64,000 nt of DNA from Candidatus Micrarchaeota archaeon (GTDB lineage Archaea; B1Sed10-29; JAJRYS01). The position numbers and the translations under genes are program-made. The stretch lies in the NCBI GenBank assembly GCA_964643685.1, contig CAZXTN010000003.1:15895-79894 (forward strand), in the 5' to 3' direction. Within the stretch, counting starts at the first letter, position 1; every line of letters starts with the position of its first letter. Below, one piece after another: positions 28,330 through 63,977 of this stretch. The notes beneath the pieces are model-generated. The model was not told where the DNA came from, searched no databases, and saw only the letters and a list, made by a program, of their open reading frames with translations.

Positions 28330-28577
28330 AAAAATTAGATTATATATTCTTTCATTCTTCTTTTGATCACCGAGCCGCGGGGGACTCACCGCCCCCCTCA
28401 ACTCTAGGTAACTCCTGCTCCCCCTGCTGACCACATGCGCTTCGCTTAGTGCTCATTTTTAGGGAATTCTTGAAAACTTTGAGTTTTCAAGTTTGCGAAG
28501 TTATATTTCGCATAATCTGATCTCCCTCCTTAATAATAAAAAAATTAGATTATATATTCTTTCATTCTTCTTTTGAT
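28330..28577 (-). repeat. perfect 38-bp direct repeat (28330-28367 = 28540-28577) of the regulator 3' end flanking a 172-bp palindromic insert
   Basis: AAAAATTAGATTATATATTCTTTCATTCTTCTTTTGAT present twice. Confidence 0.95.
28375..28455 (-). repeat. family-A palindromic element copy 2
   Basis: Reverse complement TGAGCACTAAGCGAAGCGCATGTGGTCAGCAGGGGGA...GTCCCCCGCGG matches 50490-50570. Confidence 0.9.
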
Positions 28578-29228
28578 TTCGTCAAGAGGAAGAACAGTAG
28601 TTACTAATGGAATTTTTTCAACCTCTGAAATCTTAAGAGCAACCTTGTCAACTTCAGAAATGTTATGAAGCACAACCATGGTAGGCTTCAATTTAGTTAC
28701 ACGGATTGCAATCAAAGGGCTTCTTCCCATTGAAACATTAGTGAAAATCAAAGCCCTTTCAGTAGTGTTGCCGTAAATTTTAATAAATTCATCAGCAGGC
28801 AGTTCAAGAATAGCGCGGATAGAATCAACAATAGTAAAGCCGTAAATTTTGGTTTTTTTCAGAACTGCTTCGTTTGAAATTATTCTCCCTTCAATTGATT
28901 TTACAAAATCCTTTGACTTCATTGACTTGGAAAAATCCTCCACGTCAAAAACTTCACTTGGCTTCTGCAATTGAAGCTTTTTATAAACCCAGCCTCCTTT
29001 CTGCCTGTCAATTTCAATAATGGCATTCACAAACCTTTTAATAATGCTTGCTCCTGGACTCTTTCTCCTATTCCCTTCATAATCAGAGATAGTTGAAGGA
29101 GTTACATTTAAAAAATCAGCTAATTCAGTTTGAGAAATTCCGAAAATTTCACGCCATTTTTTCAAAGAAGAGCCAGGGTTGTCACTTAAGGTAATTTCCC
29201 CTGCAATGTCAAGCAAAATCTTGTCCAT
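28545..29228 (-). CDS. XRE-family HTH transcriptional regulator (archaeal COG1709-like)
   Basis: IAGEITLS..PG..LKKWRE.F...Q, ISDYE..RRKSPG, RALIFTNVS.GRSP.IAIRV. Confidence 0.9.
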   Translation of the reverse strand: MDKILLDIAGEITLSDNPGSSLKKWREIFGISQTELADFLNVTPSTISDYEGNRRKSPGASIIKRFVNAIIEIDRQKGGWVYKKLQLQKPSEVFDVEDFSKSMKSKDFVKSIEGRIISNEAVLKKTKIYGFTIVDSIRAILELPADEFIKIYGNTTERALIFTNVSMGRSPLIAIRVTKLKPTMVVLHNISEVDKVALKISEVEKIPLVTTVLPLDEIKRRMKEYII

Positions 29229-29284
29229 TATCTACAATAAACGTAAAAGGGATTTAAAAAACAGTTAGTTTAAAAAGGGGGGTA

Positions 29285-29681
29285 GGAGAGGGGGAAAAAT
29301 TGGCTCACCCAGCCAAAGAAATCCTCTTTGTATATAAAAGAAGAATTGTTGCTAATCCTCTCCAAAAAATTGGACTATTTAAAAATTTAACAAGTCAAGT
29401 ATATAAAGGTTATGGTTAAATGAGCAGTTGAATTGGACAAATTTTCAATCAAATCTCATAAAATTGAATATTTTTGTATAAGTGAAGAATGTTAAGAAAT
29501 TTTATTGCAAGTTTGTCTATTTTCTAACAATAAGTTTATATATTTATTTAGTGTTGATTTTAATTAAGAACTGGAGGTGGTTTGAAATTAAACTCAAACC
29601 AGTTAGAACAATGTGAGAAGGGTTCAGGGGGAAAGGCTCACCCAGCCAATAGGGATTTTATTTGCTCCTTCCTCCCTTCTC
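29285..29681. repeat. two related structured elements sharing GGCTCACCCAGCCAA (29302-29316, 29635-29649)
   Basis: Exact 15-nt match, each enclosed by purine/pyrimidine outer stems. Confidence 0.7.
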
Positions 29682-29784
29682 CAACTTCACCCTTTTTTTC
29701 AGAATTTCTTGTTTTTTAAGAAAAAGGGATTAGTCTAGGTTTTTCTGCTGGATAGTGTTTTAAAGAAAAAAGAGAGAGAGGGTT

Positions 29785-30030
29785 TTAATAAGGGAAATTG
29801 ACGACTACGTATCTTCCTACTGCTTTTACTTCGCTGAATGGAATGTTCAGCAAGCCGTGCTTGTCAAGGTGGTCTTTTATTTCTTTAAGTTCATGATCTG
29901 GCTTGACAATAAGGTTTGTTAAAGCGCCGTTTATTTCAAAGTAAACATCCATTACTTCCCCTAGTTCTAATCCGCTGTTGGAAACTACTTTTTTTTCAAG
30001 CAAGTGCTTTCCTAATATTGGTTTTGACAT
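29785..30030 (-). CDS. PRC-barrel protein
   Basis: L..K.VV...G..LG.V.D......G....L.V; IPF..VKAVG.YVVV. Confidence 0.88.
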   Translation of the reverse strand: MSKPILGKHLLEKKVVSNSGLELGEVMDVYFEINGALTNLIVKPDHELKEIKDHLDKHGLLNIPFSEVKAVGRYVVVNFPY

Positions 30031-30049
30031 TCAACAAACACCTCTTTTT

Positions 30050-30286
30050 TTAGTCGGTTATGATTATGTCTCCGACTGCTTTTACTTTTTCAAATGGAAT
30101 GAAGTTTTCTTTTATGAATTTTTTAGCTTCTGTTGCTTCTCTTCCAAGTATTGAAGTTGCTTCTGCTTTCAGTAAGAATTTTATTTGTCCTTCTTCTGGT
30201 TCTATTAAAACGTCTTTTGCAACTCCTATGAAACTGCTTTTTTGCGAGTAGATTCTTCTGCCGTAAATATCAGTTAATTTGTTCAT
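30050..30286 (-). CDS. PRC-barrel protein
   Basis: IYG..IY.....IG...DVLI; IPFEKVKAVGDIII. Confidence 0.85.
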   Translation of the reverse strand: MNKLTDIYGRRIYSQKSSFIGVAKDVLIEPEEGQIKFLLKAEATSILGREATEAKKFIKENFIPFEKVKAVGDIIITD

Positions 30287-30775: not shown

Positions 30776-30783
30776 TTTGTTTC

Positions 30784-38989: not shown

Positions 38990-39101
38990 TGGACTCGGCG
39001 GGAGTTGAACCCGCGGCCTCTCCCACGCCAAGGGAGCAATCTGTAGCGAAAACAATCCGTTTGGGGAAGTGGGTTTGTTTTTACCACTGATCTACGAGCC
39101 C
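38990..39101 (-). tRNA. tRNA-Ala(GGC) with ~38-40 nt intron in the D-loop region
   Basis: GGGCTCG/CGAGTCC acceptor with G3:U70, CTCCC-TTGGCGT-GGGAG anticodon arm, GGTTCAACTCC T-arm; extra hairpin between AGTGGT and AGATT. Confidence 0.85.
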
Positions 39102-39239
39102 GGTTGTAAAGAAAGGTTTTTTGCTGGTTAAATTTAGTTTTTTGGTTATTTTTAATTGTTTTTGAAGAATAAGGATTTGATTTAAATTAAGGAGAAGGGA
39201 AGGTGGGGGCTTCCTTTCTTTTGAAGGGTTTTTTGCTGT

Positions 39240-39464
39240 TTAAGGTGAAACGTATAGTATGTTGTCTCCTCTTACTATTACTGTGCCTATTTTTGATTTC
39301 AGTTGCTCGTTTTCAAGTTCTTCTGCTTCGTCAAGCACTAGGTTCATGTGTTGGTCAAATGCTTTTAGTTTTCCTCTTAGTTGCTTGTTGCCTTTTAGTC
39401 TTACTAGTACTTGTTGGTTCATTTCTTTGTTCAGCAAGTCAAATGGTCTTGTTATTGATTCCAT
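39240..39464 (-). CDS. Sm-like archaeal protein (Lsm/SmAP)
   Basis: RPFD.L, V.LK....RG.L.AFDQHMNLVL..AEE, VIVRGDN. Confidence 0.96.
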   Translation of the reverse strand: MESITRPFDLLNKEMNQQVLVRLKGNKQLRGKLKAFDQHMNLVLDEAEELENEQLKSKIGTVIVRGDNILYVSP

Positions 39465-43812: not shown

Positions 43813-43903
43813 ATAATCAAAACAATTATAAAAAAAGACCAAGTTAATAAAAAACAAGGAAACATCAAAAAAAAATTAAAAACAGCAATCGGAGGATGTT
43901 TAA

Positions 43904-44299
43904 ATGTCAGTTACAGTTGGACAAGTAAAAGACTTGAAAGAAGGAAGGTACGTCGTAATAGATGGAGAACCATGCAAAATAACTTCTATTCAAAAATCAA
44001 AGCCAGGTAAACACGGCTCAGCAAAAGCAAGAGTCGAAGGAGTATCCTTATTCAGCGGAAGCAAAAAAACACTTTTGAAAAGCGTTGACTCCTCATGCGA
44101 AATACCAGAACTCCTAAGAAAAAAAGCACAAGTAATAGCAAACCTTGGGGGAAACAGGCTTCAATTAATGGACTTGGAAACCTACGAAACATACGAAATT
44201 GACGTGGACCCAGAATACGCTGACTTGCAATCAGGCAGAGAAGTAGAAGTCCAAGAAATCATGGGAAGAAGATTCTTGACTCATGCCAAAAAGGAATAA
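43904..44299 (+). CDS. eif5a: translation factor aIF5A
   Basis: SKPGKHGSAK hypusination motif, QLMDLETYET. Confidence 0.97.
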   Translation: MSVTVGQVKDLKEGRYVVIDGEPCKITSIQKSKPGKHGSAKARVEGVSLFSGSKKTLLKSVDSSCEIPELLRKKAQVIANLGGNRLQLMDLETYETYEIDVDPEYADLQSGREVEVQEIMGRRFLTHAKKE

Positions 44300-44436
44300 T
44301 AGCTCTTCAAAATTATTTTTTCTTTTAGGGCGTGTTTTTCTTTTCCACAGGGTACACAGAAAAAGAAAAAGCGCGACGGAGGTTCCTAACACACGCAAAG
44401 AAAGAATAAGACTTTCTTCAAACTTACTTTTTTCTT
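44267..44436 (+). repeat. synonymously recoded duplicate of the aIF5A 3' end (44267-44299 vs 44377-44409) flanking a hairpin insert
   Basis: Both translate RRFLTHAKKE*; downstream UTRs also align. Confidence 0.9.
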
Positions 44437-44719
44437 ATTTTTTCAAAACCAGCTCCTTTTTTACTTGAACAAACACCCTATTAGCTTTATTCGTGTATTC
44501 AGGGCTTTTGACACCCCCTTACTTCCAGTATTCGGCGCTGAGAGATTTTTTCAGGAAATAAAAGCTTCTCCGGGCTTTTCGCTTCAAAAAAAGCTGGTAA
44601 AACAGGTTTTTTGATTGAATTTTCCTTTTTCTAGCTTTGTTTAAACTGGTTTTAACTTGCTAGTGTTTGAAAATTATTAAATTAAAATAAAATTTCAACA
44701 AAACTAAAACAAGCAAGTT

Positions 44720-44747: not shown

Positions 44748-44763
44748 GTTTGGAACTTATAAT

Positions 44764-45422: not shown

Positions 45423-45429
45423 AAAGAAA

Positions 45430-47926: not shown

Positions 47927-48044
47927 AAAAACCTTTAAAAACAATTAAAAGCATTAATTGAAAACAGAAGAGGGTTTTAACGCGACCATGCAACCAAAAC
48001 AGCCTCTTTCTGAAAAAAACAAATATTGATTAGAGTTGATTATC

Positions 48045-48210
48045 AAATGGACTTTAAGTTAAAAGAAAAACGCTGGAACACGGCTTTTCTTTTAAAAAAA
48101 GAAAACACCGGGAAAAGAAAACTAACCACATTCGACTACGTCGAAGTGCTTAGAAAAAAAGAGTGGTGAAGAAATGGACTTTAAGTTAAAAGAAAAACGC
48201 TGGAATACTG
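48045..48210 (+). repeat. duplicate of the valS 5' end (48047-48083 vs 48174-48210) flanking a hairpin insert
   Basis: Both encode MDFKLKEKRWNT; only AAC/AAT and ACG/ACT differ. Confidence 0.92.
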
Positions 48211-50483
48211 ATATTGAAAACGAGATAAACGAAAAATGGAAGCAGGAAAAATTATACAAATTCAACAAAAACACAGAAAAAGAGATAATTACAATTGACA
48301 ACCCACCAGCATACCCAAGCGGACACTGGCACCCCGGCTCAGCAACAGGATACTCATACATAGACATGATAGCACGCTACGAAAGAATGAACGGAAAAGA
48401 AATCAACTTCCCATACTGCCTTGACAGAAACGGCTTGCCAATTGAAATGGCAGTTGAAAAAAAATACAAAAAAAGCGCACACGACTATGACAGGGAAAAA
48501 TTCCTAAAACTCTGCGAACAAACAATCTCAGAATTCGGAGAAGAAATCAGAACCGGCTACGAAAAACTAGGAATATCAGTAGATTACGAAAACTACTACT
48601 ACACAGACATGGAAGAATACAGAAAACTAACACAAGCAACTTTCATAGAACTATACAAAAAAGGTTTAATCTATGAAGACGACAGGCCAACAAACTGGTG
48701 CACTGGATGCAAAACAACAATAGCAGATTCAGAAATAGAATACAACGAAGGCACAATAAAACTAAACAAGTTAAAATTCAAAGTAAAAGAAACAGGAGAA
48801 GAAATAGAAATAGCAACAACCCGTCCTGAACTATTATGCGCTTGTGAAACCGTAATATACAATCCAAAAGATAGCAGGTACAAGCACTTGAACGGAAAAC
48901 ATGCAATCACTCCAATATACGAAAAAGAAGTTTTAATACAACCGCACCCAGCAGCTTCAATGGAATACGGCTCAGGCTTAGTAATGATATGCTCATACGG
49001 GGACTCAACAGACGTGCAGTTATTCATTGAACTCGGTTTAAAGCCAACAAAGGCAATTGACAAGCATAGGAAAATGACAGAAGCAGCTGGAAAATACGCG
49101 GGATTAACAGTGCCAGAAGCAAGGGAAAAAATAATCAAAGAACTGGAAGAAACAGGCGTGTTAATAGGACAAGAAGACACGCCGCACAGGTACCCAATAT
49201 GCGAAAGATGCCACTCCCCAGTTGAAATCATAGCAATAAAAGAATTCTACTTAAAACAAATAGAGTTCCTAGACAAAGTAAAAGAGATGGCTGACAAGAC
49301 AAAATTCTATCCAGCAAAACACAAGCAAATACTCTTCGACTGGATAGACAGCGTGAAAATCGACTGGCCAATAAGCAGAAGAAGGTACTACGCAACAGAG
49401 ATACCATTATGGTACTGTGAAAAATGCGGAGAACTCCTCCTCCCAGAACCAGGAGAATATTACCAGCCATGGAAAAATAACCCGCCTGAAGGAAGCAAGT
49501 GTTCAAAATGCGGAGGAACAGAATTCAAAGGAGAAACAAGAGTATTCGACACTTGGATGGACTCCTCAATATCAAACTTATACGTAAGCGGATACAAAAG
49601 AGACGAAGAATTATTTAACAAAACATTTGGAAAAATCATACGCCCACAGGGAAGAGACATTGTAAGAACATGGCTCTATTACACAATGCTAAGAAATTAC
49701 CAGTTGCTTGAACAGCCTGCTTTTGAAAAAGTAATGATACACGGCATGGGCTTAGACGAGCATGGTAAGAAGATGAGCAAAAGCAAAGGCAACTTTATCT
49801 CACCAGAAGAAATGCTTTCAAAATACGGAGCAGACGCTTGGAGATTATGGGCAGCTTCAGAAACAAACATGGGAGAAGATTTCAGGATATCAGAAGAAAG
49901 AATAAAAGGAGCGTCAAAATTCCTGACAAAACTATGGAACCTAAGCAGGTTCATCTCCACATTTGAAATAAAAGAAACAGGAGAATTAAAAAACACGGAC
50001 CACTGGATACTCGCAGAATTAAACCAATTAATAAAACAAAGTAAAGAAGGATACGAAGAATACAACTTCTACATCCCAGCTACAAGAATCAAAGAATTTA
50101 TTTGGAACACTTTCTCATCAAACTATGTTGAAATGGTAAAACCAAGAGCATATGAAGGGGACACAGGAGCACTATACACCCTGCACACCTGTTTAAAGAC
50201 AATTTTGAAATTATTAGCTCCAATCACTCCGTTCATAACAGACAAGGTATATAGAGAAGTATATGGAAAAACAGTACACTTAGAGGCATTCCCAGAGGAG
50301 AATGAGAATTGGAACAGCAACTTCAAGGAGTTAACAGAAAAAATAATTGAATTCAATTCAATGGTATGGAAGACAAAAAAAGAACAAGGATTATCACTAA
50401 ACAGCGAAATAGAAGGAATAAAAATACCAAGCGAATTAAAACCATTTGAAGACGACTTAATCAAAATGCACAAGTTGAAATAA
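48174..50483 (+). CDS. valS: valyl-tRNA synthetase (archaeal type)
   Basis: TTRPELL, DWPISRRR, DTWMDSS, RPQG.DI.RTW, KMSKS. Confidence 0.95.
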   Translation: MDFKLKEKRWNTDIENEINEKWKQEKLYKFNKNTEKEIITIDNPPAYPSGHWHPGSATGYSYIDMIARYERMNGKEINFPYCLDRNGLPIEMAVEKKYKKSAHDYDREKFLKLCEQTISEFGEEIRTGYEKLGISVDYENYYYTDMEEYRKLTQATFIELYKKGLIYEDDRPTNWCTGCKTTIADSEIEYNEGTIKLNKLKFKVKETGEEIEIATTRPELLCACETVIYNPKDSRYKHLNGKHAITPIYEKEVLIQPHPAASMEYGSGLVMICSYGDSTDVQLFIELGLKPTKAIDKHRKMTEAAGKYAGLTVPEAREKIIKELEETGVLIGQEDTPHRYPICERCHSPVEIIAIKEFYLKQIEFLDKVKEMADKTKFYPAKHKQILFDWIDSVKIDWPISRRRYYATEIPLWYCEKCGELLLPEPGEYYQPWKNNPPEGSKCSKCGGTEFKGETRVFDTWMDSSISNLYVSGYKRDEELFNKTFGKIIRPQGRDIVRTWLYYTMLRNYQLLEQPAFEKVMIHGMGLDEHGKKMSKSKGNFISPEEMLSKYGADAWRLWAASETNMGEDFRISEERIKGASKFLTKLWNLSRFISTFEIKETGELKNTDHWILAELNQLIKQSKEGYEEYNFYIPATRIKEFIWNTFSSNYVEMVKPRAYEGDTGALYTLHTCLKTILKLLAPITPFITDKVYREVYGKTVHLEAFPEENENWNSNFKELTEKIIEFNSMVWKTKKEQGLSLNSEIEGIKIPSELKPFEDDLIKMHKLK

Positions 50484-50608
50484 AAAAAATGAGCACTAAG
50501 CGAAGCGCATGTGGTCAGCAGGGGGATCAGGATATCCCTAAAACTGAGGGGGACGGCAAGTCCCCCGCGGTTTGGATTGGAAAAAATGCACAAGTTAAAA
50601 TGAAAAAA
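50463..50608 (+). repeat. family-A element copy 3 (50490-50570) flanked by a duplicated valS 3' end (50463-50488 vs 50583-50608)
   Basis: AAAATGCACAAGTTGAAATAA vs AAAATGCACAAGTTAAAATGA. Confidence 0.88.
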
Positions 50609-50637
50609 GTGAAAACCAAAAGTGGTGAATAGATAAA

Positions 50638-53421: not shown

Positions 53422-53567
53422 TTAAAACATACTCAGACAAAAAAGTATTTATAAAAAGACAATTACAATAATAAGCACCTGTTTTTAACTAAACAATAAT
53501 AAAGGATAAAACAAGTGAGATATAGAATTTTTGTTTCAAATTTTTCAGAAAACGGAGGGATGGAGAA

Positions 53568-55214: not shown

Positions 55215-55216
55215 GC

Positions 55217-55325
55217 GCAAACTTTTGAAAAGTTTGCATCAAACAAGGCACCTGCACTTCGTTTGGTGCCTTAGTTCAAAAACCAAAGGTTTTTGAAAAT
55301 GTTTGCCTCTAACGAGGCAAAAAAA
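55217..55325 (+). repeat. family-B palindromic element copy 3
   Basis: GCAAACTTTTGAAAAGTTTGC-ATCAA-AAGGCACC..GGTGCCTT-AGTTCAAAAACC..GGTTTTTGAA-TTTGCCTCTAACGAGGCAAA. Confidence 0.85.
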
Positions 55326-55362
55326 GTAAATTGCAATTCAGTTGCTCAAACATTTTCTTTTT

Positions 55363-58176
55363 TTATTTTTTCTCTTGTTCATCACGTTTTTTCAGCTTGC
55401 GTTTAACTTCATCAATAAGCATTTTATTAATTCTCTCTTCTAATTCTGCTGAACCTCCTTTAATTCCAGCTTTTTTCAATTTTTCTTCAAATTCAGGATC
55501 AGATTCAGCAAGCAAAGTATTCCCATAAAAGAAAGAGTTGCTGTTTTTTTCAACAGGCTCATTTGCTTTTCCTTCAGGTTCTTTTTTTGCTTTTTTTGTT
55601 TTATTAGCAATCGCTTTTGCAACTTGCTCAACTTGACTTATTGTCAAGTCTTCAAATCCCTTGACATTGCTTTTCTGTTCTTTTTCAGAAATAGTTTCAG
55701 TTGCTTTCATCGTTTTTTTAACATTTTTATTCTTCTTTTCTTCTTCTAAATCTCCTTCATTAAACTCATTAGAATCAATAGGTATTGAATTAATCAAACT
55801 ATCCAGCCTGTCATCAATGCGACGTTCTTCACCCTCCTCTTCAATTGAATCTTCTAAAATTTCATCAATTAAATCATCAAGCTCGTCTTTTTCAATTGAA
55901 TCTTCTAAAAATTCATCAATCCAAGCATCAGAATCCTCCTCTTTCTCTCCTTCTTCAGCTCCTTCACTTACTCCTTTATCATATTCATCAATTTCATCTT
56001 CTAATTTTTCATCCCAATCAAAACCCCTATCTTCTTCCTTGTGCTCAGTTTCTTCACTTTCTCCAAAAATTTCATGATTCAGATTTTCAATATCCTCAAG
56101 ACTATAATCTTCAGCTTCCACCTCTTTTTCTTCTTTGACACCAACTGCCTCCTTCTTTGGTTCTTCACTTTCTGTCTTTTTTTTCTCTTCTCCTTTTTCA
56201 GCTTCTTCATTTATTATATCCTCATAATTACCAAACTCTTCTTCTTGTTCAACTTCTTCCTTTTCTTCTTTTAAAATTATCCCTTTTCTTGCTGCTACAT
56301 CATCAAAAACAGAATTCACAGCTTGGGACAATTCCCTTGCTTCTTCTTCTGTCAACAAAGGCGCTTTCTCTTTTAGATAACTTTTCATACTCTCCTTAGA
56401 TATTGTACCATCTGCTACTTCCCTAATAAAAGCTAAAGGAAGAAAACACCTATAAATAGTCTCATCCATCTCCTTTTGAGAAATTTTCCCATTTAAACGC
56501 TTTGAAATTTTTATAAGATGAGGAACTACTTTACTAATCTCTGCAGATGAAAAAACAACACCTGACATTCCCTCACTAAACTGTAAAACACCCTTAATTA
56601 TCTCTTTATAAGCTTCTTTGCCAATTTTATCTGAAGCAGAAGAAATCTTATCAAAAATCTTAACAAAACCTCTTATTTCATCAGCATCTTTTTCCCTCAA
56701 AACCTTCTGCATTTTCCAAAAAACATAGTCAACATCCTTTAATTCAAAACCCATGCTAGTTAGTTTGCTAACTGGCTTAAGAACACTCATAACCTCTTTT
56801 TTTGACAAATTCTTCTCACTTAAATCAATTGAAAAACCAGAAACCTGCTTAATAAAAGATTCAGTTTCCTCAGCAGAAGCGCCTGACTTAACCAAAGACT
56901 TATCCAACTTCTGTAAAAACTTCAAATAATCCCTCTGCAACAAAAAAGAACCTTCTTCACCAGCACTCACCTCAGGAACTTTGCTTAACACCCTCTCCTT
57001 AACTTCCTGCAACTTTCTTGAAACCCTTTTACCAAGCTTAGGTTTTTCTTCAATTTCTTCAGTTCGTTTCTTAAAAATTGAAAACCTCTTTTCATTTTGT
57101 TGTTGCCTTCCTCCCCCTTCCTGCTCTATCAAATCTTCTGCTACAGGTAATAAACCCTGCTCTTCTTCTTCATTTAATAACCTTTCTTCTTGTTCAATCT
57201 CTTCATTAACTTCATTTTCAACTTCTCTTGCTTCAAGCTCATTCATCTGTTCATCTAACCAAGCATTACCTAACTTCTCTTCCTCTTTTCCCTCCTCTGC
57301 TCTTTCTTCTTGAATCCTTACCTTCTCTTCTCTTGCTTCGCGATCAAGCCACCTGCGCTTCTCAGGCACTTCCCTAACAGGCTCTGCTTGTTCCTGTTCA
57401 AACTGCTCCCTTTCTCTTCTCTCTTGCTCTTCCCTTACCTGCTCTGCTTTTCTTTCAGCAACTTTTTCTCCCGTTAAACGAGCCAGCCTCTCCCTAAGCT
57501 CCCTTAACTTCTTTTCTTTACCAAAAACAAAACCCCTATTCTCTAATCTTTTTATCTCCTTTTCCAAAGATTCAATTAAATATCCTTTCCTTATATCTTC
57601 TCTTGATTTTTCTAATTCTCTTTCATCAGCTTTCCTGCCTAACTGCCTTGCTCTCTCTGCATCACTTACTTGACTTATTCCTACTCGTGGAGCTTCTATC
57701 CTTCCAATTTCAGGACCTTCCCTCCTTCTCTTGGAAACTCTTCTTTCTTCCCTTTGAACAGGAACCTGCTGTTTTTCCCTATACTCTCTTACAAATTCAT
57801 CAACAGCCTCTTGACTCCCTCCAAATAACTTAAACAATTCATTATAAGCAGCATTAAGAACATCACCCTTAGTTTCAGTTTCCAACACTCTTATTAAATT
57901 CTCTGCTTGTTTCCTTGTTTTCTCATCTAAAACTTGCTTAGCTCTAATTCCCTGTTCACGAGCAGTTCTTGAACCGCGTTTTATCAAAGGCCTAGCATCC
58001 ACTCTCCTACCTTCAACTACCCTCGCATTTCTAAGGTTTTCAATAACCTTCTTTTTCATTTCAATGCTAGCCTGCTGATTAGATTTAGAAACAGTTCCAG
58101 AAGTAGAACTAGCACCCCATTTACGAGGATGCTTACCTCCTCTTCCTCTTAATTGCCTTGCAGCTCTGCTAACCAC
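55363..58176 (-). CDS. large orphan protein: basic N-terminus, central helical domain, acidic low-complexity regions
   Basis: 937-aa ORF, GTG start with AGGTG upstream. Confidence 0.75.
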   Translation of the reverse strand: MVSRAARQLRGRGGKHPRKWGASSTSGTVSKSNQQASIEMKKKVIENLRNARVVEGRRVDARPLIKRGSRTAREQGIRAKQVLDEKTRKQAENLIRVLETETKGDVLNAAYNELFKLFGGSQEAVDEFVREYREKQQVPVQREERRVSKRRREGPEIGRIEAPRVGISQVSDAERARQLGRKADERELEKSREDIRKGYLIESLEKEIKRLENRGFVFGKEKKLRELRERLARLTGEKVAERKAEQVREEQERREREQFEQEQAEPVREVPEKRRWLDREAREEKVRIQEERAEEGKEEEKLGNAWLDEQMNELEAREVENEVNEEIEQEERLLNEEEEQGLLPVAEDLIEQEGGGRQQQNEKRFSIFKKRTEEIEEKPKLGKRVSRKLQEVKERVLSKVPEVSAGEEGSFLLQRDYLKFLQKLDKSLVKSGASAEETESFIKQVSGFSIDLSEKNLSKKEVMSVLKPVSKLTSMGFELKDVDYVFWKMQKVLREKDADEIRGFVKIFDKISSASDKIGKEAYKEIIKGVLQFSEGMSGVVFSSAEISKVVPHLIKISKRLNGKISQKEMDETIYRCFLPLAFIREVADGTISKESMKSYLKEKAPLLTEEEARELSQAVNSVFDDVAARKGIILKEEKEEVEQEEEFGNYEDIINEEAEKGEEKKKTESEEPKKEAVGVKEEKEVEAEDYSLEDIENLNHEIFGESEETEHKEEDRGFDWDEKLEDEIDEYDKGVSEGAEEGEKEEDSDAWIDEFLEDSIEKDELDDLIDEILEDSIEEEGEERRIDDRLDSLINSIPIDSNEFNEGDLEEEKKNKNVKKTMKATETISEKEQKSNVKGFEDLTISQVEQVAKAIANKTKKAKKEPEGKANEPVEKNSNSFFYGNTLLAESDPEFEEKLKKAGIKGGSAELEERINKMLIDEVKRKLKKRDEQEKK

Positions 58177-58270
58177 ACAAACACCTTGTAACTACTAATA
58201 AGTAGTTATATGTTTTATTGTTTAAATATTTAACTAGACAGTAGAAAGAGAACTAAATTTAAAAAACTTC

Positions 58271-58810
58271 TCATCTTCTCTGTTTCAAAAGACGCTTGTT
58301 AATTATCTTCAACTGCTTTTCTTTTTCTTTAATATCTTTAACTAATTTTTTTCTTTGCTTTTCAGGAACATGATTCAACAGAGAATACATTAAATCAACT
58401 TCTTCAATTAACTCGCTTCTCATCTGCTCAAGATCCTCATAAACTTTTTGTTTCAAGCTTCTTTTAGTTATTTTATGCTGTTCAGATAAATTCCCTTTTA
58501 TCAAGAATTCATCTAAGGCACTTGATTCTCGTTTTTCAGAAGAAACAGTCTTATCTTCTTTTTTTATCTTCCTAGTTTCAGATTCAACTGACTTTGAATT
58601 AGTTTCAGAAAGCAAGACAAGGTCAAAGCCTTTAAAAAGGTTGTAATTTTTTTCAAAAAAAAGCCTTTCTTCTGGTGAAAGCTTTTCCCCTTTCTTAAGT
58701 TTTTTTGAAATAATCTTAACTGCTTTATCTGCTCTTTTCAAACCAGAGGAAGTGAGTAAAAACTGGGTTTCACTTGGCTTTCGCTTTTTTCTTTTCAAAA
58801 AATTAATCAT
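58271..58810 (-). CDS. orphan K-rich protein
   Basis: 179-aa ORF, MINFLKRKKRK. Confidence 0.65.
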   Translation of the reverse strand: MINFLKRKKRKPSETQFLLTSSGLKRADKAVKIISKKLKKGEKLSPEERLFFEKNYNLFKGFDLVLLSETNSKSVESETRKIKKEDKTVSSEKRESSALDEFLIKGNLSEQHKITKRSLKQKVYEDLEQMRSELIEEVDLMYSLLNHVPEKQRKKLVKDIKEKEKQLKIINKRLLKQRR

Positions 58811-58909
58811 TAAAATAGAGTAAAGCAGTGAAAATTAATAAAACAATAGCTTAAGCAAGGCGAAAAAACCTCTTATTTTTTATTGTTGTTTTCCTTTTAC
58901 TTTTAACAT

Positions 58910-59326
58910 ATGATTATAGGAGTAATTGAAGAAACAACTGACAGGAACTTAAGCGACTTCCTGGAAAGATTCGTGCACAGCAGAGTAGAACAGACAGTAT
59001 TTAAGAAATTCAAAGCAGTTGACGAATTCGACGCCCTTGCCCTGCTGAACAAAACAAAAGAAATGCACCAACGCATACTGATTGCTGAACTTGACAGGGA
59101 AGAGCCTGAAAAAGAAACTGCTTTCTACGAAGCACTTGCAAACTGGGAAGCGCAAACAGGCTTGACTGTATTCAAAGCAATTTTTTACAACGACGAAGAA
59201 TCAGAACCAATAGTAAAAGAAACAGCAGTGAAATTCATTGAAAAAGTTTACAAAATAAAAATAAAAGAAGAAAAACCAGAACAAGACGACGAAGAAGTAG
59301 AAGGATTCGAACTACCAGGAGCTTAA
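58910..59326 (+). CDS. hypothetical protein, possibly a diverged archaeal riboflavin synthase/lumazine-synthase-fold homolog
   Basis: Residue pattern and length resemble archaeal RibC (by eye only). Confidence 0.55.
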   Translation: MIIGVIEETTDRNLSDFLERFVHSRVEQTVFKKFKAVDEFDALALLNKTKEMHQRILIAELDREEPEKETAFYEALANWEAQTGLTVFKAIFYNDEESEPIVKETAVKFIEKVYKIKIKEEKPEQDDEEVEGFELPGA

Positions 59327-59336
59327 GGGAGGAGAT

Positions 59337-60656
59337 TTAAGTTTCCAAAAGGTTCTGGATAAAACCCTTCTTCTTTAGTTTTAGATGATAAATGTCCTCC
59401 CAATACCTGTCTTTAATTTCTTTGAAATTTTTCTCAAAATCCTCAACTCCCTGAGTAGTTACAAGTTTAGCAACTTCCTTTTTAGGTATAACTCCAGCAG
59501 CGCTTAACAAACCAATGGCTTTAATATCCTGTAATCTTTCAGAATTTTCTTTTTCTTCAAACAAGTCATTCAATTCACTTCTCAAATAAACCCTTTTCGT
59601 TTCATCCTTTATTTCTTTCAAAACATCTGGTAGTATATACGTTTCTGCCAACTTAGCTTGCAATTCCCTCTGCTCTTTAGTCAACAAAGTTTTAGTTTTA
59701 GTCTTCTTTCTTAAAAAATTATTAACTTCTTCATCCCTCTTATCTGCTATTTCATTTCTTTTTTCAATTAATTTACTTATTTTTCTTGGATTAACCTCTT
59801 TTTGCCTTAATTTATAAATTTTCATATCCACTTTTTGAATTTCTTCATCATATTTTTTTCTAATTGAATTAACTTCTCTTTGCAAATTAACATTTAAATT
59901 TCTTTCAAGTTTGTTTCTAATCCTCTCTTGAGCTTCATGAGTCTTCTCATGGACAAAAACACTAAGAGTCCCCCTAGAACTTTCACCAAAAACATTTGGA
60001 TAAGGTTCAACAGTAACTTTTTGAACAGGGGCATACTTAGACATTTGAGCTAAAGTTCTATTACTATGAAACTCAGCAATTTTAGGCCCTTCAAAACCCC
60101 TTTCAGCTAGTTCTTCATAAGTGCTTCTTTGCATTTCGCCACGGGCAACCATTTCATCAGCAGTTTTTTTAATTAAATTTTTATCCCAAGCACGAGGATC
60201 CCTTGGATTAACCCCTGCTTTATTAACCATTGATCTAATTTCATTCAAAGAACGCGAATAATCCCTCTCAGGCATCAAACCCACAGTAACTGTCAAATCA
60301 GGATGAACACGAGAAGCTTCACTTGGAATAAAATGCTTTCCAGGAGTCAATTTAACTTCTTGCCCCGACTCCTTAAACAAATCTTCCAATTTCCTAGTAA
60401 AAACAGGACCCATCTCACTCAAAAGCCTCTGTCCCTTAATTTCAGCTCGTCTAGTTTCATCTTCAACTCTGCGATCAATCTCTGACTGCATTTTTTCTAA
60501 AAAACCACTAACCCTTTCTCTCTTCTCAGCTAAAGAAATTCCATCCCTTCTCCTCTCCTCTATAGCTCTTTTATTATTAACACTAGGAGCAGAAGCATTA
60601 GCTGCAACCTTCGGGGGCTGCTGAGGCTTCGTTTTTCTCTTTCCAAAAAAAGGCAT
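59337..60656 (-). CDS. orphan protein with HExxH zincin-like motif
   Basis: VFVHEKTHEAQ followed later by ELQA. Confidence 0.65.
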   Translation of the reverse strand: MPFFGKRKTKPQQPPKVAANASAPSVNNKRAIEERRRDGISLAEKRERVSGFLEKMQSEIDRRVEDETRRAEIKGQRLLSEMGPVFTRKLEDLFKESGQEVKLTPGKHFIPSEASRVHPDLTVTVGLMPERDYSRSLNEIRSMVNKAGVNPRDPRAWDKNLIKKTADEMVARGEMQRSTYEELAERGFEGPKIAEFHSNRTLAQMSKYAPVQKVTVEPYPNVFGESSRGTLSVFVHEKTHEAQERIRNKLERNLNVNLQREVNSIRKKYDEEIQKVDMKIYKLRQKEVNPRKISKLIEKRNEIADKRDEEVNNFLRKKTKTKTLLTKEQRELQAKLAETYILPDVLKEIKDETKRVYLRSELNDLFEEKENSERLQDIKAIGLLSAAGVIPKKEVAKLVTTQGVEDFEKNFKEIKDRYWEDIYHLKLKKKGFIQNLLET

Positions 60657-60809
60657 AATAGATATATAAATAAAGGAATATAAAAGTATACAGGAAATTA
60701 ATCAACCTTTACCTAAATTATTCAAATCCCCTTCATTTTCTTTAAAAACAGATAGATTGAAAAAATTAAAGAAATAACCTTCAATTCTTACAATATGAAG
60801 TAAAAAAAA

Positions 60810-60935
60810 CTACTTCTCCTTGATTTTCAAAACAGTATAATCAAAAACAATTTCTTCGTGCTTTAACTGCAACTGCTTCTTGTTCTTGTAAACTTGCTCC
60901 CAATCAAAATATTCTAACACCCCTTTACACCCCAT
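60810..60935 (-). CDS. putative small protein (~36-41 aa)
   Basis: (MGCKG)VLEYFDWEQVYKNKKQLQLKHEEIVFDYTVLKIKEK*, coupled to the rnhB stop. Confidence 0.35.
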   Translation of the reverse strand: MGCKGVLEYFDWEQVYKNKKQLQLKHEEIVFDYTVLKIKEK

Positions 60936-61582
60936 TAAAAATCACTTAAACTGCTTTGCTTCTTCTCTTTCTTCAAACGACGCGCGGTTTCCCACGAGTA
61001 TCTAATGAAAGGCAGTTCCTTGTTCACGTTTTCAATCATGAACTTTTTCGTCTTAGGGTCAGCTGGATAACCACTTCCTAAATCACCGTAAGTTTGTTTT
61101 AATTTTTCAATTTCCCTATCCCTAATCACCTTAGCAATAATGGAAGCACTTGAAACAGCTGGGTACTTCGCATCAGCCTTATGCTCAGCCCTCACTTCTG
61201 CTTTGATGTCAACGTACTTTGAAATCCTCCTGATAAAACCATAACCAGTTGGGTCAGGCAAGTCAATCAAAATCAAATCAGGTTCAGTCTTAAACTTCTT
61301 AATCAACTCAGCTATTTTCAAAGCTTCCAGTTCATTCAAGCTCATTTTCTTGCGTTGCCTGTCAATCTCAGAAGCTGAAATTTTAACATAATGAGTTTCA
61401 ACTGCAAACTCCTTAACCTTGTCAAACAAAAACTCTCTTCTCTTAGGAGAAATAAGCTTAGAATCGCGGATGTTCAATTCCTTAGCTATTGCTTCCTCTT
61501 CTTCACGCATCAAAACGCCTGCTAAAACCATCGGCCCGATTACTGGACCTCTGCCCGCCTCATCTATGCCTAAAACCAACAT
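60935..61582 (-). CDS. rnhB: ribonuclease HII
   Basis: GIDEAGRGPVIGP, DSK, HKAD, AASI.AKV.RD-like, GSGYP.DP.T. Confidence 0.97.
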   Translation of the reverse strand: MLVLGIDEAGRGPVIGPMVLAGVLMREEEEAIAKELNIRDSKLISPKRREFLFDKVKEFAVETHYVKISASEIDRQRKKMSLNELEALKIAELIKKFKTEPDLILIDLPDPTGYGFIRRISKYVDIKAEVRAEHKADAKYPAVSSASIIAKVIRDREIEKLKQTYGDLGSGYPADPKTKKFMIENVNKELPFIRYSWETARRLKKEKKQSSLSDF

Positions 61583-61681
61583 TCAAAACAAACCTTTATT
61601 AAATTCAACAATAACTTTAATAAACGCGCAGGAATAAAAACAATAAGGTAAGAGCAAAACACTAAAAGGAGGAGAAAAAAC

Positions 61682-61939
61682 ATGCAGGGAATAATAGTAA
61701 GTTTCAGAAGAGGAAGAAGAACAGTGCAGCCAAACCATGCTTTAATAGAAGCCAAGGAAGTGAAAACAAGAGTAGATGTCACTAAATTAATTGGAAAAAA
61801 AGTAGAGCTTCCAATCAAAAACGGTAAAATCACTGGAAAAATCGCTTCAGCTCACGGCAATAAAGGAGTAATGAGAGCAGTTTTCAAAAAAGCAATTACA
61901 AACGACATGATTGGAAAAAAAGTCACAATAAGCGAGTGA
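61682..61939 (+). CDS. rpl35ae: 50S ribosomal protein L35Ae (eL33)
   Basis: G.I..FRRG, LIGKKV, GKI...HGNKG..RA.F. Confidence 0.92.
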   Translation: MQGIIVSFRRGRRTVQPNHALIEAKEVKTRVDVTKLIGKKVELPIKNGKITGKIASAHGNKGVMRAVFKKAITNDMIGKKVTISE

Positions 61940-61949
61940 GTGAGTTTAA

Positions 61950-63029
61950 TTGCTTAAAACCAAAACAATCAAAGAAGGTGAAATTGAATTAATTGTTCCA
62001 GAGCTTGGTGAAAACCAAGTGCCGGAACAAGGACTAGTTTTTTACAACCCAAAAATGGGATTTAACAGGACAAACTCAGTTGAAGTTCTAAACACTTATT
62101 TTAAAAAACCAGGCGAAGAAGTGAAAGTATTGGATTTGCTAAGCGCTACTGGAGCAAGGGCAGTTCGCTACGCAAAAGAAGCAAAAGTGCCTGTGAAAGT
62201 GTTTGCTAATGACGTGCAACCATCAGCAGTAAAATTAATTAAAAAAAATGCTGAATTAAACAAGGTTAAAATTAACATAAGCAACTTGGAAGGCAACAAG
62301 TTTTTAATTGACAACAAGCTGGAGTACTTTGATTTCATTGACATTGACCCTTTCGGCAGTCCAATTAATTTCATTTCAAATGCGCTGCAGGCAATCAAAG
62401 CCAAAGGAGGCTTGGTTGGCTTAACTGCAACTGACACTGGGACTCTTGCTGGAATTTATGAAAAAGCCTGCTTTAAGAGATACGGAATCATAAGCAGGAG
62501 AAGCAGTTTCAAGCACGAGCTTGGATTAAGGAACTTGATTGCTAGTTTTGTTAAAATCGCTTACCAGCATGACTTAACTGCACGCCCTTATTTTTCTTAT
62601 CACTCAATTCACTACAACCGCGTGTTTATGGAAACTCTCGGAGGAGGGAAAGAAATGCGCAGGCAATTGAAAAACCTTGGCTTCATCAAGTACTGTCCTA
62701 AATGCGAGAGAAGAGAATTGATTCCTTATAATAAAGAATTTGAAAGGAAATGCGAATGCGGAGATAATGCCTTGATTTTTGGAATTACTTGGATCGGCAA
62801 ATTAGCTGAACAGCCTTTCTTTTTAGAAAAAGAAGAAATTGAAATCAAACAACCTTATTACAACATAAGCGCTTTGACTAAGATTTACAAGAAGCAAAGC
62901 AATAAGAAAAAAAGCATAATTGAATCTTTGCAGGAAATTGGTTACAAGGCAAGCTCAACTCATTTTGAAGGGCATGGTTTGAAAACCAACGCGCCTTATG
63001 AAAAACTAGTTGAAAAGATAATCAAATAA
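61950..63029 (+). CDS. trm1: tRNA (guanine-26-N2)-dimethyltransferase Trm1
   Basis: VFYNP.M..NR, LSATG.R..RY, DIDPFGSP, TATD, HELGLR. Confidence 0.93.
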   Translation: MLKTKTIKEGEIELIVPELGENQVPEQGLVFYNPKMGFNRTNSVEVLNTYFKKPGEEVKVLDLLSATGARAVRYAKEAKVPVKVFANDVQPSAVKLIKKNAELNKVKINISNLEGNKFLIDNKLEYFDFIDIDPFGSPINFISNALQAIKAKGGLVGLTATDTGTLAGIYEKACFKRYGIISRRSSFKHELGLRNLIASFVKIAYQHDLTARPYFSYHSIHYNRVFMETLGGGKEMRRQLKNLGFIKYCPKCERRELIPYNKEFERKCECGDNALIFGITWIGKLAEQPFFLEKEEIEIKQPYYNISALTKIYKKQSNKKKSIIESLQEIGYKASSTHFEGHGLKTNAPYEKLVEKIIK

Positions 63030-63041
63030 TTAATTTGATTT

Positions 63042-63581
63042 TCAGTCAAACAAAGAGTAAACTGCTGCAATCAAAGCAAAGAACAAAAGCAATATAAGCA
63101 ATGCTTTGATTAAATCTTCTTCATTTAATGTTTTGAAAGGAGAAGAATTTGACTTGCGTGTTTTTGAATAATTGGATTTTAGCTTTTTTTCAATGAATTT
63201 TTTAATTTCTTCAGGAGCAGCTCCTTCTGCTCTGAGTTCTTCAATTTTTTCAATAATTTCATCTATTTTTTTCAAGGAAGTCAAACGCTTTACTTTCATT
63301 TCCACCCCATACTGATTCAAGTAAGCTTCAAGCGTGATTCTCTTTTCAGTTTTACCTAGCCTTTCAGCAAAGCGTCTTCTATTCAATATCTCTTCTTGTT
63401 CTGCTTTTGAAGCAGGATTATTACTTACCTCTTCTTTTATTTTTTTAAGAGTTTTTTTCCTTGCTGTAATTGGAATTCTTTTTGTTAAACTAAGATTTTG
63501 CTTCAATTCTGCTCTTAATTTCCCTTTTTCAGTTAAAGTTGATAATTTTTTTAATGCTCTTTTAGTTCTCTCTAATGCCAT
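63042..63581 (-). CDS. orphan basic protein with C-terminal TM anchor
   Basis: 179-aa ORF ending in a hydrophobic helix. Confidence 0.65.
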   Translation of the reverse strand: MALERTKRALKKLSTLTEKGKLRAELKQNLSLTKRIPITARKKTLKKIKEEVSNNPASKAEQEEILNRRRFAERLGKTEKRITLEAYLNQYGVEMKVKRLTSLKKIDEIIEKIEELRAEGAAPEEIKKFIEKKLKSNYSKTRKSNSSPFKTLNEEDLIKALLILLLFFALIAAVYSLFD

Positions 63582-63682
63582 TATAATTCATAATTAAACA
63601 AAGTAATGTTTATAAATCATTAGCATTACAATAAAAAAGCAGCTGCTACTCTCTTTTTTAAAAAAAAAGCAACTGCAGAAAA

Positions 63683-63757
63683 GGGCCGCTAGCTTAGTCT
63701 GGTTGGAGCATTCGACTGATAATCGAAAGGTCGGGAGTTCAAATCTCCTGCGGCCCA
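63683..63757 (+). tRNA. tRNA-Ile(GAT)
   Basis: GGGCCGC/GCGGCCC acceptor, TTCGA-CTGATAA-TCGAA anticodon arm, GTTCAAATC. Confidence 0.95.
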
Positions 63758-63977
63758 CTTAACAAAACCAAAAAAAACAAAAACAAATTTTTTCTTTTAG
63801 GGCGTGTTTTTCTCTTTATCAAAAAAAGACAGCTAAGCGAAGCGCATGCTGTCTGCAGGGGAATCAGGAAGAACTTGAAACTGAAGGGGGCAGCCAGCCC
63901 CCTGCGGTTAAGTGAGGATCTCCTGCGGCCCACTTAACAAAACCAAAAAAAAACAAAAACAAATTTTTTCTTTAGGG
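63743..63977 (+). repeat. 60-bp direct repeat (63743-63802 vs 63918-63977) of the tRNA-Ile 3' end plus trailer, flanking family-A element copy 4 (63827-63907)
   Basis: ATCTCCTGCGGCCCACTTAACAAAACC...TTTAGGG twice, differing only in homopolymer lengths. Confidence 0.93.

Follow-up and report, generated by a model that had tools for sequence, protein, structure and literature searches.

Short hairpin inserts between duplicated gene ends, and their likeness to tRNA T-loop introns, in a 695-kb archaeal genome

Several genes of a Candidatus Micrarchaeota archaeon end in an unusual way: a short hairpin-forming insert lies between the working end of the gene and a second, stranded copy of that same end. 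These inserts are described here in a window of 64,000 nt, which is the whole stretch of DNA analysed (positions 15895-79894 of contig CAZXTN010000003.1, assembly GCA_964643685.1, cited as C3:15895-79894), and in the rest of the same genome (G000), other contigs of which are cited as C1, C2, C6, C8 and C9. Other G numbers denote other genomes, G001-G004 being family relatives, and L numbers denote loci or contigs from other genomes or metagenomes. The assembly comprises 695 kb in 12 contigs with about 36% GC, is 92% complete and 0.6% contaminated, and has a coding fraction of about 90%. The window encodes aIF5A, archaeal-type aminoacyl-tRNA synthetases and a thermosome, and the metagenome runs that contain it are hydrothermal-vent samples. 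The open reading frame (ORF) calls used throughout are crude, and several statements on boundaries and pairing were made by eye.

Five sites in the window show the layout of working gene end, hairpin insert (64-172 nt) and stranded copy. All of them had been named in the original prediction, which was made from the sequence alone, and all are present at or near the positions given there. The features are as follows, with family A and E_TA denoting two kinds of hairpin element and L011 a collinear contig of a relative, all described below.

28330..28367, minus strand: stranded copy of the 3' end of a helix-turn-helix (HTH) regulator gene; 10 codons, stop and 5 nt, 38/38 identical to the working copy
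28368..28539, minus strand: composite HTH insert of 172 nt; a full family-A element preceded, in gene orientation, by an A2-like hairpin that two nested hairpins interrupt
28540..28577, minus strand: working 3' end of the HTH_3 regulator gene (28545..29228), with the identical 38-nt repeat
44270..44315, plus strand: working aIF5A tail RFLTHAKKE* (44270-44299) and 16 nt of trailer; gene 43904..44299
44316..44379, plus strand: aIF5A insert, the T/A-rich bulged hairpin element E_TA
44380..44437, plus strand: stranded aIF5A tail (RFLTHAKKE* re-encoded at 44380-44409, synonymously recoded) and diverged trailer
48045..48078, plus strand: stranded copy of the ValS 5' end; 2 nt, ATG and 10 codons, 34/34 identical
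48079..48171, plus strand: ValS 5' insert of 93 nt; T/A hairpin and A1-variant hairpin, absent in L011
48172..48205, plus strand: working ValS 5' end, ATG at 48174; gene for a ValS-like class-I aminoacyl-tRNA synthetase 48174..50483
50463..50483, plus strand: working ValS 3' tail KMHKLK* (ttg, taa)
50484..50575, plus strand: family-A element at the ValS 3' end, 92 nt, three hairpins; minimum free energy (MFE) -38.6 kcal/mol, z -4.3 on the sense strand; absent in L011
50583..50603, plus strand: stranded ValS 3' tail KMHKLK* (tta, tga)
63743..63802, plus strand: working 3' end of tRNA-Ile (from the T loop; tRNA 63683-63758) and 43-nt trailer
63803..63917, plus strand: tRNA-Ile insert of 115 nt; E_TA fragment and family-A element ending in GTGAGGAT, absent in L011
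63918..63977, plus strand: stranded tRNA-Ile 3' end and trailer, 60-nt repeat

Each site has its own features. In the orientation of the HTH gene, the full family-A element reads A1-A2-A3-GCGGCTCGGTG, and its 3' end abuts the stranded copy. The two aIF5A tails differ at 8 of 30 nt in 7 codons, with no non-synonymous change, and weaker similarity runs for about 28 nt beyond the stop (by eye). The ValS 5' insert terminates in GGTGA, a Shine-Dalgarno-like sequence ahead of the working ATG. At the ValS 3' end the repeat core spans about 21-30 nt, and the three codons to the left of KMHKLK* differ non-synonymously (DLI vs GLE). The 60-nt repeat of tRNA-Ile consists of 17 nt of tRNA and 43 nt of trailer, with one 1-nt indel between the copies, and the GTGAGGAT end of the insert can pair with the UUCA T loop of the same tRNA (4/4 pairs). 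Three diverged protein cases with exclusively synonymous differences had been described in the window. There are two, aIF5A and ValS 3', and the rule applies to all seven changed codons of aIF5A and breaks down just left of the ValS 3' core. An Rfam search of the window returned only two tRNAs above gathering thresholds, and nothing meaningful at E<=10 within 28300-28600.

Some further observations concern the surroundings of these sites. A 21-nt direct repeat at 39111-39131 and 39223-39243 (19 matches, 91-nt spacer) adjoins the 5' side of an intron-containing tRNA-Gly at 38990-39101 on the minus strand and may be a further 5'-end site. The insertion points in HTH, aIF5A and ValS seem to lie in the loop of a T-arm-like hairpin, a lead seen by eye and without a control. 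Downstream of aIF5A, the motif CCCCCTTACTTCCAGTATTC at 44500-44530 is kept in L002, L003 and L004, with two copies in one relative.

The inserts draw on a common set of modules. Family A is about 90 nt long and consists of three hairpins, A1 (with a GCGAAGC core), A2 and A3, followed by GCGKTTCGGTGA; its fold has a z of -4.3 and is steadier on the gene-sense strand than on the other (-38.6 vs -32.7 kcal/mol). Other modules are E_TA (further copies at C8:56-117, between two identical 55-nt repeats, and in part at 63787-63816), a module made of GGGCTTTATGCCC and GATGCAAC...GTTGCTGAGG, and variants of A1. Modules combine as mosaics and nest in one another's loops, as in the split A2 hairpin of the HTH insert, and three family-A copies carry a 42-nt insertion between A2 and A3. 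An alignment of 15 pieces places the family-A hairpins internally, not terminally, and reveals no terminal inverted repeats: the 5' end (an A-run and GAGCAC...) and the 3' end (...GCGKTTCGGTGA) are not complementary. Family A has 14 matches in its own genome; of 40 relatives, only G004 and G005 gave a match, a single weak one in either, and the remaining 38 gave none. The A1 21-mer occurs in 0 viral contigs.

These elements have a fixed polarity. The 3' module ...GCGKTTYGG(TGA) is kept in 13/13 aligned family-A copies that reach the 3' end, and 11 of the 13 directly precede sequence that is also found 50-250 nt upstream (duplications of at least 17 nt). The shared hairpin families and the rule that the stranded copy follows the last hairpin, both part of the original prediction, hold on these counts. 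One of the two remaining copies lies inside a tRNA intron; the other is in the window.

10880..11021, plus strand: family-A copy with the 42-nt internal insertion, between two convergent genes; the sole copy without a flanking duplication of at least 12 nt

At a tRNA 5' site (C6:36094) the A1-variant hairpin is antisense, so that in the orientation of the element the order is again working copy, element, stranded copy. Truncation at the 5' side, considered as a sign of target-primed copying that starts at the 3' end, is weakened as such, because modules occur independently. A separate module, GATGC-hairpin-GCTGA, adjoins stranded tRNA ends at C2:16640-16702, C1:112642-112695 and similar places; it may resemble box C/D or kink-turn motifs.

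Empty counterparts of the sites are found in a near relative. Metagenome contig L011 is collinear with window positions 45445-63759 (ValS 86% identical in amino acids and about 84% in nucleotides) and is empty at ValS 5', ValS 3' and tRNA-Ile. Its ValS has a single start and a single TKMHKLK*, then 19 nt, then the IleS start. Comparison of empty and filled alleles had been proposed as a check, and, judged by this alignment, these three window insertions are derived relative to L011. The relative has in turn an identical 57-nt duplication of its own, which encloses a 27-nt hairpin of another kind; it lies where the orthologue of C6:736-1260 ends, and the genome under study carries a family-A insert with diverged copies at the same point. 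As different inserts occupy this point in the two genomes, it was hit at least twice. Among the loci of more distant relatives (L013-L018 and L020, about 100 kb in total) no such duplications were found, and the two nearest contigs have one each. By eye, the tRNA-Ile of L011 (L011:13395-13440) contains a 22-nt hairpin insertion in the D-arm region that the tRNA-Ile of the window does not have, with a partial copy of the tRNA 5' end just upstream. Conversely, window segments 55184-58872 and 59337-60656 have no counterpart in L011. They encode a repeat-rich protein of 937 aa, which has strong negative GC skew and a sub-threshold tape-measure match only, and proteins of 179 and 439 aa; lineage-specific genes adjoining the sites (55363-58176, 58271-58810, 58910-59326 and 59337-60656) gave no informative Pfam match.

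Beyond the window, about 40 such sites occur in the genome, at the 3' and 5' ends of tRNA and protein genes. A seed-and-extend scan recovered 133 direct-repeat pairs with a spacing of 30-700 nt, vs 6, 8 and 12 in three block-shuffled genomes, and repeats are enriched beside the elements, as the genome scan suggested at the outset was expected to find. Sixty-three pairs lie inside one ORF (protein-internal repeats) and 2 at 100-N gaps, which leaves 68; automated assignment of pairs to gene termini under-calls with the crude ORF set, and only the classes 'inside one ORF' and 'N gap' were used. The 40 pairs examined together with their inserts are mostly tRNA 3' and 5' ends and protein 3' and 5' ends around hairpin inserts. 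At tRNA 3' ends the left boundary of the duplication is in or beside the T loop and the right boundary 0-46 nt beyond the tRNA, and at tRNA 5' ends the inner boundary is in the D loop. Sites at 5' ends throughout the genome and in tRNA D loops, like the link to tRNA introns described below, go beyond what had been predicted. Duplications are 14-63 nt long in this genome and about 100 nt at locus L156 of another. At the peptide level, 7 tails among 755 ORF ends are re-encoded within 450 nt downstream (at least 6/9 aa plus stop), vs 0 with reversed sequence.

Two exact 55-nt repeats, at C1:199881-200090 and C4:40522-40731, surround 100-N scaffold gaps and were rejected as artefacts of assembler k-mer overlap. 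Another case concerns C8:90-25585, which is 99.95% identical to C1:75876-101373 and has different flanks. At one end, a full E_TA element between two 55-nt repeats corresponds to a partial element with a single copy; at the other, an intron-less tRNA-Gly(CCC) on the plus strand corresponds to a T-loop-interrupted tRNA-Gly in the opposite orientation. The pair is a genuine duplication of 25 kb or else reflects haplotypes of two strains that share one bin.

The same layout is found in four other metagenome-assembled genomes (MAGs) of Woese-/Nanoarchaeota (G041-G044). Eleven of 23 A1-like hairpins in these MAGs have flanking direct repeats scoring at least 46, vs 0/23 in reversed controls. Examples are the 100-nt ferredoxin-type tail at L156, which is kept in frame, and identical repeats of 30-60 nt at L176 and L107. 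The loci were chosen from a 16-mer scan of genome contigs, in which 8 archaeal loci were used from 80 listed of 118 stretches; the scan matched mostly unrelated bacteria because the GCGAAGC hairpin is generic. Loci of other genomes with the same hairpin bear the titles Woesearchaeota or Nanoarchaeota, which, with the gene content of the window, points to a small archaeon of DPANN type.

The tRNA genes themselves connect these elements with introns. Standard tools detect only 21 tRNAs in the genome, and many T arms are without a contiguous 3' strand. At least 21 further T arms are interrupted between positions 59 and 60 of the T loop, by inserts 32-139 nt long. In 21/21 hand-picked inserts, 4 nt lying 3 nt before the 3' strand of the T stem pair with the T-loop UUCR (4/4 pairs in 13 and 3/4 in 8), which leaves a 3-nt bulge. 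Such a bulge with its 4-bp helix resembles one half of the bulge-helix-bulge motif; scoring covered the 3' half, and in two cases the outer helix h' was followed by eye. An identical 4+3-nt arrangement, with 4/4 pairs, occurs at 8 of 15 junctions between element and stranded copy, including that of tRNA-Ile. On these pairings, the 3' ends of the elements look like intron 3' splice sites. ARAGORN calls tRNA-Gln (C1:166) and the tRNA at C6:36 only after removal of the T-loop insert in silico, so in the two cases tested removal restores a canonical tRNA, a trait of bulge-helix-bulge introns. The insert at C1:166 ends in a family-A copy, and family A is therefore predicted to be part of an obligatory intron. 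Family A and the 'AAGCGAAAAT' class recur in several T loops, every downstream (stranded) copy gives a valid tRNA in silico, and the genome has a gene for the splicing endonuclease (EndA, C1:21078-21338). One T-loop intron family, found in several tRNAs (e.g. C9:5930-6050 and C6:36296-36375), starts like the 3' end of a different tRNA (ATCCGGCTGGCGGGCT); by eye, this start may be a fossil of an upstream flank carried with the element.

Divergence between the copies bears on where the working end came from. In nine diverged protein pairs of this genome the differences fall on codon positions 1/2/3 as 11/10/31, and 30 of the 42 changed codons are synonymous and 12 non-synonymous. Nine targets in the four other MAGs, one of them without an ORF, gave eight scored pairs with 14/8/29 differences and 21 synonymous and 18 non-synonymous codons. 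Pooled (25/18/60), the counts depart from a duplication-plus-decay null of 0.28/0.27/0.45 with a chi-square of 7.9 and p~0.02 (hand estimate). It had been argued that divergence of a coding type should not arise from a simple duplication left to decay, and this tally had been proposed as a check. The third-position bias is real; several pairs also carry non-synonymous changes, and some of the bias would follow from mere duplication, given that synonymous changes are the only ones open to a working copy. Individual pairs are far more marked: all 7 changed codons of aIF5A are synonymous, at L182 an identical 21-aa tail has 9 synonymous nucleotide differences in 7 changed sense codons, and its stop differs (taa/tag, by eye), and at L233 there are 3 synonymous vs 1 non-synonymous changes.

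The relatives reveal the polarity of one pair, at the gene C1:194047-195948, whose tail APRNLDSIRLK* is conserved in all four family relatives (G001-G004). The stranded copy, aac ctt gac tca ata agg, equals G004 at 18/18 core nt, with decay-type changes (R>K, K>G) at its edges. Eleven differences in 30 nt, every one synonymous, separate G004 from the working copy (cgt aac ctc gat tcc atc cgt tta aaa tga), whose codons are seldom used in its own genome. The gene matches G004 exactly up to and including tac aag ttc aaa gta gaa gca, after which it turns foreign-like, and 79 inserted nt (13 codons including the stop, and a 40-nt hairpin) stand in place of about 11 native nt. A second copy of this patch was not found in the genome. 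On this comparison the native end is the stranded one, and the hairpin brought with it the working end, which is synonymously recoded and stems from another lineage. The site fits a recombination event that relied on homology on the gene side and on an illegitimate joint at the 3' end of the element.

At other genes the relatives give different signals. The ValS 3' outgroup (L011) indicates scattered changes in both copies, which fits simple duplication. The endonuclease-III-like (Nth) gene at C3:6596-6753 has a duplicated stretch of 56 nt that stops short of the stop codon: the frame of the working copy continues into the element, up to ...KRGLSEANAV*, and the stranded copy keeps a relative-like ...KKGVEKK*. 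The downstream copy of this gene carries the native C-terminus according to the relatives, which do not polarise its 5 differences. The original prediction that gene ends are imported from a divergent allele thus survives at C1:194047; it cannot apply to the identical duplications of 38, 34 and 60 nt in the window or of 57 nt in L011, and ValS 3' does not require it.

Mobilising enzymes were sought by six-frame profile searches of the 92%-complete genome, covering only the families named here. Reverse transcriptase RVT_1 (PF00078), Y1_Tnp (PF01797), Cas1 (PF01867), rve and DDE_Tnp_1 had no match; tyrosine integrase Phage_integrase (PF00589) had no candidates, with a control positive in 14/14 genomes; and TnpB gave a sub-threshold zinc-ribbon match only. 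Y2_Tnp (PF04986), sought as a mark of IS91/Helitron-like rolling-circle elements, also had no match, but its control was likewise silent in all 14 genomes, and Helitron_like_N was not searched. Processing by HUH/Y1 nucleases, which the original prediction had brought up, and the integrase and reverse transcriptase genes that it had proposed to look for accordingly gain nothing from the genome.

These results leave the inserts outside several known classes. Repetitive extragenic palindromic (REP) or REPIN-RAYT elements and the palindrome-associated elements (PATE) of IS200/IS605 were rejected, with no Y1 match and 11/13 family-A copies carrying a target duplication. Casposons were rejected on the missing Cas1 match and on a duplication length that varies where casposons have a TSD (target-site duplication) of 14-15 nt, and retroelements (SINE-like, group II or diversity-generating) on the missing PF00078 match. 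A template/variable repeat pair of a diversity-generating retroelement is further disfavoured at aIF5A, where the differences (A>G, T>C, G>A, T>A, C>A) are not confined to adenines (by eye). Integrative elements of the tyrosine-integrase type share with the inserts the direct repeats including the gene end at all sites and the element-supplied working end at C1:194047; they were set aside as a simple class, as the genome has no integrase.

The anatomy, the polarity, the lineage-specific copy number, the empty sites and the nesting of inserts show that a non-autonomous insertion element is active here or was so until recently. In a judgement that is evenly poised, and that builds on comparative sequence data, we favour the view that the inserts are non-autonomous, intron-related elements that insert in a polar manner and duplicate long target stretches of variable length, some of them bringing a replacement gene end from another lineage by one-sided recombination. 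They would form a superfamily of lineage-specific short elements (about 25-190 nt), mosaics of GC-rich or T/A-rich hairpin modules, and the same sequences would double as the organism's non-canonical tRNA T-loop introns. The conserved 3' module would join the target internally, in the T or D loop of a tRNA or 10-20 codons from the end of a protein gene, and the stretch from the joining point outward would end up on both sides of the element. Inserts would be seen at gene ends because, in a genome that is about 90% coding, only duplications that run past the terminus leave the gene intact. Survivors would be oriented sense at 3' ends and antisense at 5' ends, and in a tRNA whose duplication falls short, survival would be limited to inserts that can be spliced out as introns.

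Two routes are favoured within this intron-related account, since identical duplications of 34-60 nt need de novo duplication of the target and the C1:194047 site requires import of a gene end. In the first route, de novo insertion with target duplication would yield copies that are identical at birth. In the second, a patch of upstream gene end plus element from a related lineage would find its anchor in the homologous gene sequence and be linked by an illegitimate joint at the 3' end of the element, leaving the native end stranded and a foreign, synonymously different end working. Candidates for the joining chemistry are host recombination or repair, template switching at hairpin loops, and an enzyme supplied in trans. 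A bolder form of the same account is a tentative possibility: mobile, enzyme-less, intron-like elements, whose 3' module would pair with the universal UUCR of tRNA T loops and so serve as a splice acceptor, might enter the hairpin loops of genes through host repair or recombination with long target duplications and shuttle replacement gene-end cassettes between related DPANN lineages.

Several points weigh against this account or parts of it. None of the enzyme families searched in the 92%-complete genome supplies a mobilising enzyme. The 21 GC-rich, tRNA-like T arms were picked from 266 noisy rows, with two tRNAs validated, and MFE folds of eight sites, including aIF5A, ValS 3' and the endonuclease-III-like gene, produced no clear bulge-helix-bulge (HTH by eye only). 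A1 hairpins also occur alone and family A is a mosaic, which blunts evidence for copying from the 3' end. The foreign end is demonstrated at one site only, the aIF5A tails of family relatives are too divergent to tell which copy is native, and at C6:736 the lineage-specific residues are common to both copies, with 9 changes and a marginal third-position bias (hand estimate p~0.04). The pooled synonymous excess over a fair null is modest.

That modest excess is one of the points in favour of the strongest competitor: a plain element resembling a miniature inverted-repeat transposable element (MITE), with a long, variable target-site duplication (TSD), whose stranded copies decay, the bias arising from purifying selection on the working copy and no gene end being imported. 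Identical duplications of 34-60 nt are indeed common, with the 57-nt one in L011 among the parallels; the ValS 3' outgroup pattern agrees with independent changes in both copies; and non-synonymous or decay changes are seen at C2:1491, C2:71304, L236, L243 and the stranded tRNA T stem at C1:114066. At C1:194047, however, it is the working and not the stranded copy that diverges, and all its changes are synonymous in comparison with four relatives. Neither the 7 changed codons of aIF5A nor the 7 sense codons and stop of L182 include a non-synonymous change. MITE membership in the usual sense was also rejected, as terminal inverted repeats, a fixed short TSD (14-63 nt here, about 100 nt in L156) and, in the 92%-complete genome, rve or DDE_Tnp_1 matches are all absent, TnpB giving a sub-threshold match only. 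We consider this explanation rather unlikely.

A less probable reading still, which we doubt, makes both copies functional: element and upstream copy would be an optional bulge-helix-bulge intron, the downstream copy an alternative 3' exon, and purifying selection would act on both. The junctions that share with obligatory introns the 4 nt pairing with UUCR, the 3-nt bulge and the T-stem 3' strand (8/15) speak for it, as do the valid tRNAs formed by each downstream copy in a genome with EndA, the lone change in the stranded copy of C1:112619, which turns a U-G into a U-A pair (by eye), and the open frames kept by the long stranded tails of L156 and L182. Yet the folds of the eight sites place neither boundary in a bulge-helix-bulge, the stranded copy at C1:194047 breaks a conserved peptide (R>K, K>G), and the stranded tRNA end at C1:114066 has a T-stem mismatch. 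The identical fresh duplications and the foreign working copy would also be left unexplained.

It is quite improbable that the sites are attL-scar-attR remnants of plasmids or viruses driven by an integrase, with the gene end in attP and the interior later lost. Precedents exist, in that integration of the SSV1 and pNOB8 type gives direct repeats of tRNA ends and has been proposed to deliver introns and strand tRNA fragments (PMC3293823), and the icd gene receives its 3' end from prophage e14, with a pseudo-icd' of 163 bp left behind (PMC6379469). Against these stand the absence of a tyrosine integrase from the genome and of the A1 21-mer from viral contigs, repeats that reach into non-conserved trailers with a variable length of 14-63 nt, and some 40 targets with the same small modules, each of which would need the same precise internal deletion. 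Finally, chimeric joining of co-occurring strains around palindromes can hardly account for the sites, even though the MAG shows overlap artefacts (k=55) at two of its N gaps, contains a nearly identical duplicate contig of 25.5 kb whose flanks differ, and has contigs that often end at elements (the window end, the C8 start), since the repeats are 14-63 nt and mostly not k, the copies are direct and not inverted, copies up to 47% diverged share no 55-mers at the junctions, L011, an independent metagenome contig, and four MAGs of separate records have the layout as well, and the independent contigs of one run, which may be the source sample, hold 1.00 of sampled 31-mers of 43800-53700.

The layout shows one way in which a genome with about 90% coding sequence can tolerate insertions in essential genes such as aIF5A, ValRS and tRNAs: the gene end is duplicated or replaced. 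It also carries a practical warning, as both annotation and work at the strain level can be led astray by stranded ends or recoded tails, and interrupted tRNAs are missed by standard tools. No description of miniature, enzyme-less hairpin elements with gene-end duplication in DPANN was found in the literature searched, supplements not covered, and the inserts are best understood beside systems that share some of their traits.

Like REP sequences and bacterial interspersed mosaic elements (BIME), REPINs and MITEs, the inserts are short, multi-copy, non-autonomous, hairpin-forming mosaic modules just after genes; unlike them, they are without terminal inverted repeats and a fixed short TSD, and no Y1 or DDE match accompanies them. 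We know of no long target duplications or gene-end replacement as features of those families. Target-primed insertion of non-LTR elements and short interspersed nuclear elements (SINE) shares the variable target duplication, the fixed 3' end and the variable 5' side, sometimes with upstream flank; the inserts differ in having no tail and no reverse transcriptase match in the genome.

One-sided recombination has its own parallels. In homology-facilitated illegitimate recombination (PMC3240628), incoming DNA has a homologous anchor at one of its sides only, and the other side is attached by an illegitimate joint. In the orphan 3'-end displacement reported for arrays such as those of type VI secretion (T6SS), Rhs and contact-dependent inhibition (CDI) (PMC5361080), a resident gene end is moved downstream. 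The one-sided anchor and the displaced resident end have counterparts among the inserts. The differences are that the patch here is only about 80 nt, that the displaced and incoming ends encode the same peptide, and that in every case a hairpin element's 3' module forms the illegitimate joint.

Integrative elements are a further parallel. Elements at archaeal tRNA genes are proposed to deliver introns and strand tRNA fragments in Caldiarchaeum (PMC3293823), and prophage e14 brings the icd 3' end and leaves pseudo-icd' (PMC6379469). As with SSV1/pNOB8-type elements and e14, a direct repeat of the gene end flanks the insert, the incoming end works and the native one is stranded, and the supplied end can differ in nucleotides and keep the product. 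Unlike these kilobase, integrase-bearing elements, the inserts are 25-190 nt long and geneless in a genome with no integrase, and they have dozens of unrelated targets, including 5' ends, with variable and often identical repeats that take in non-conserved trailer.

Another likeness is to the transposing tRNA introns of Thermoproteales (Fujishima et al. 2010, as cited in a 2026 preprint). Related sequences are reported to recur there, too, in different tRNAs and positions under the constraint of the bulge-helix-bulge; unlike those introns, the same elements here also occupy the ends of protein genes and have long flanking duplications. For Asgard archaea, the preprint reports no such DNA-level footprint of arrival and leaves the arrival route of tRNA introns open. 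In the present genome, sequences of intron families are met with fresh, long flanking duplications. Gene-end inserts may therefore show how such introns and similar small inserts enter genes without killing them, and the empty sites in a near relative, together with the copies at protein ends, open the question to population metagenomics and RNA-seq. If the elements are indeed mobile and intron-like, their duplications would be the long-sought DNA footprint of archaeal tRNA intron arrival, and the stranded copies would be usable alternative exons.

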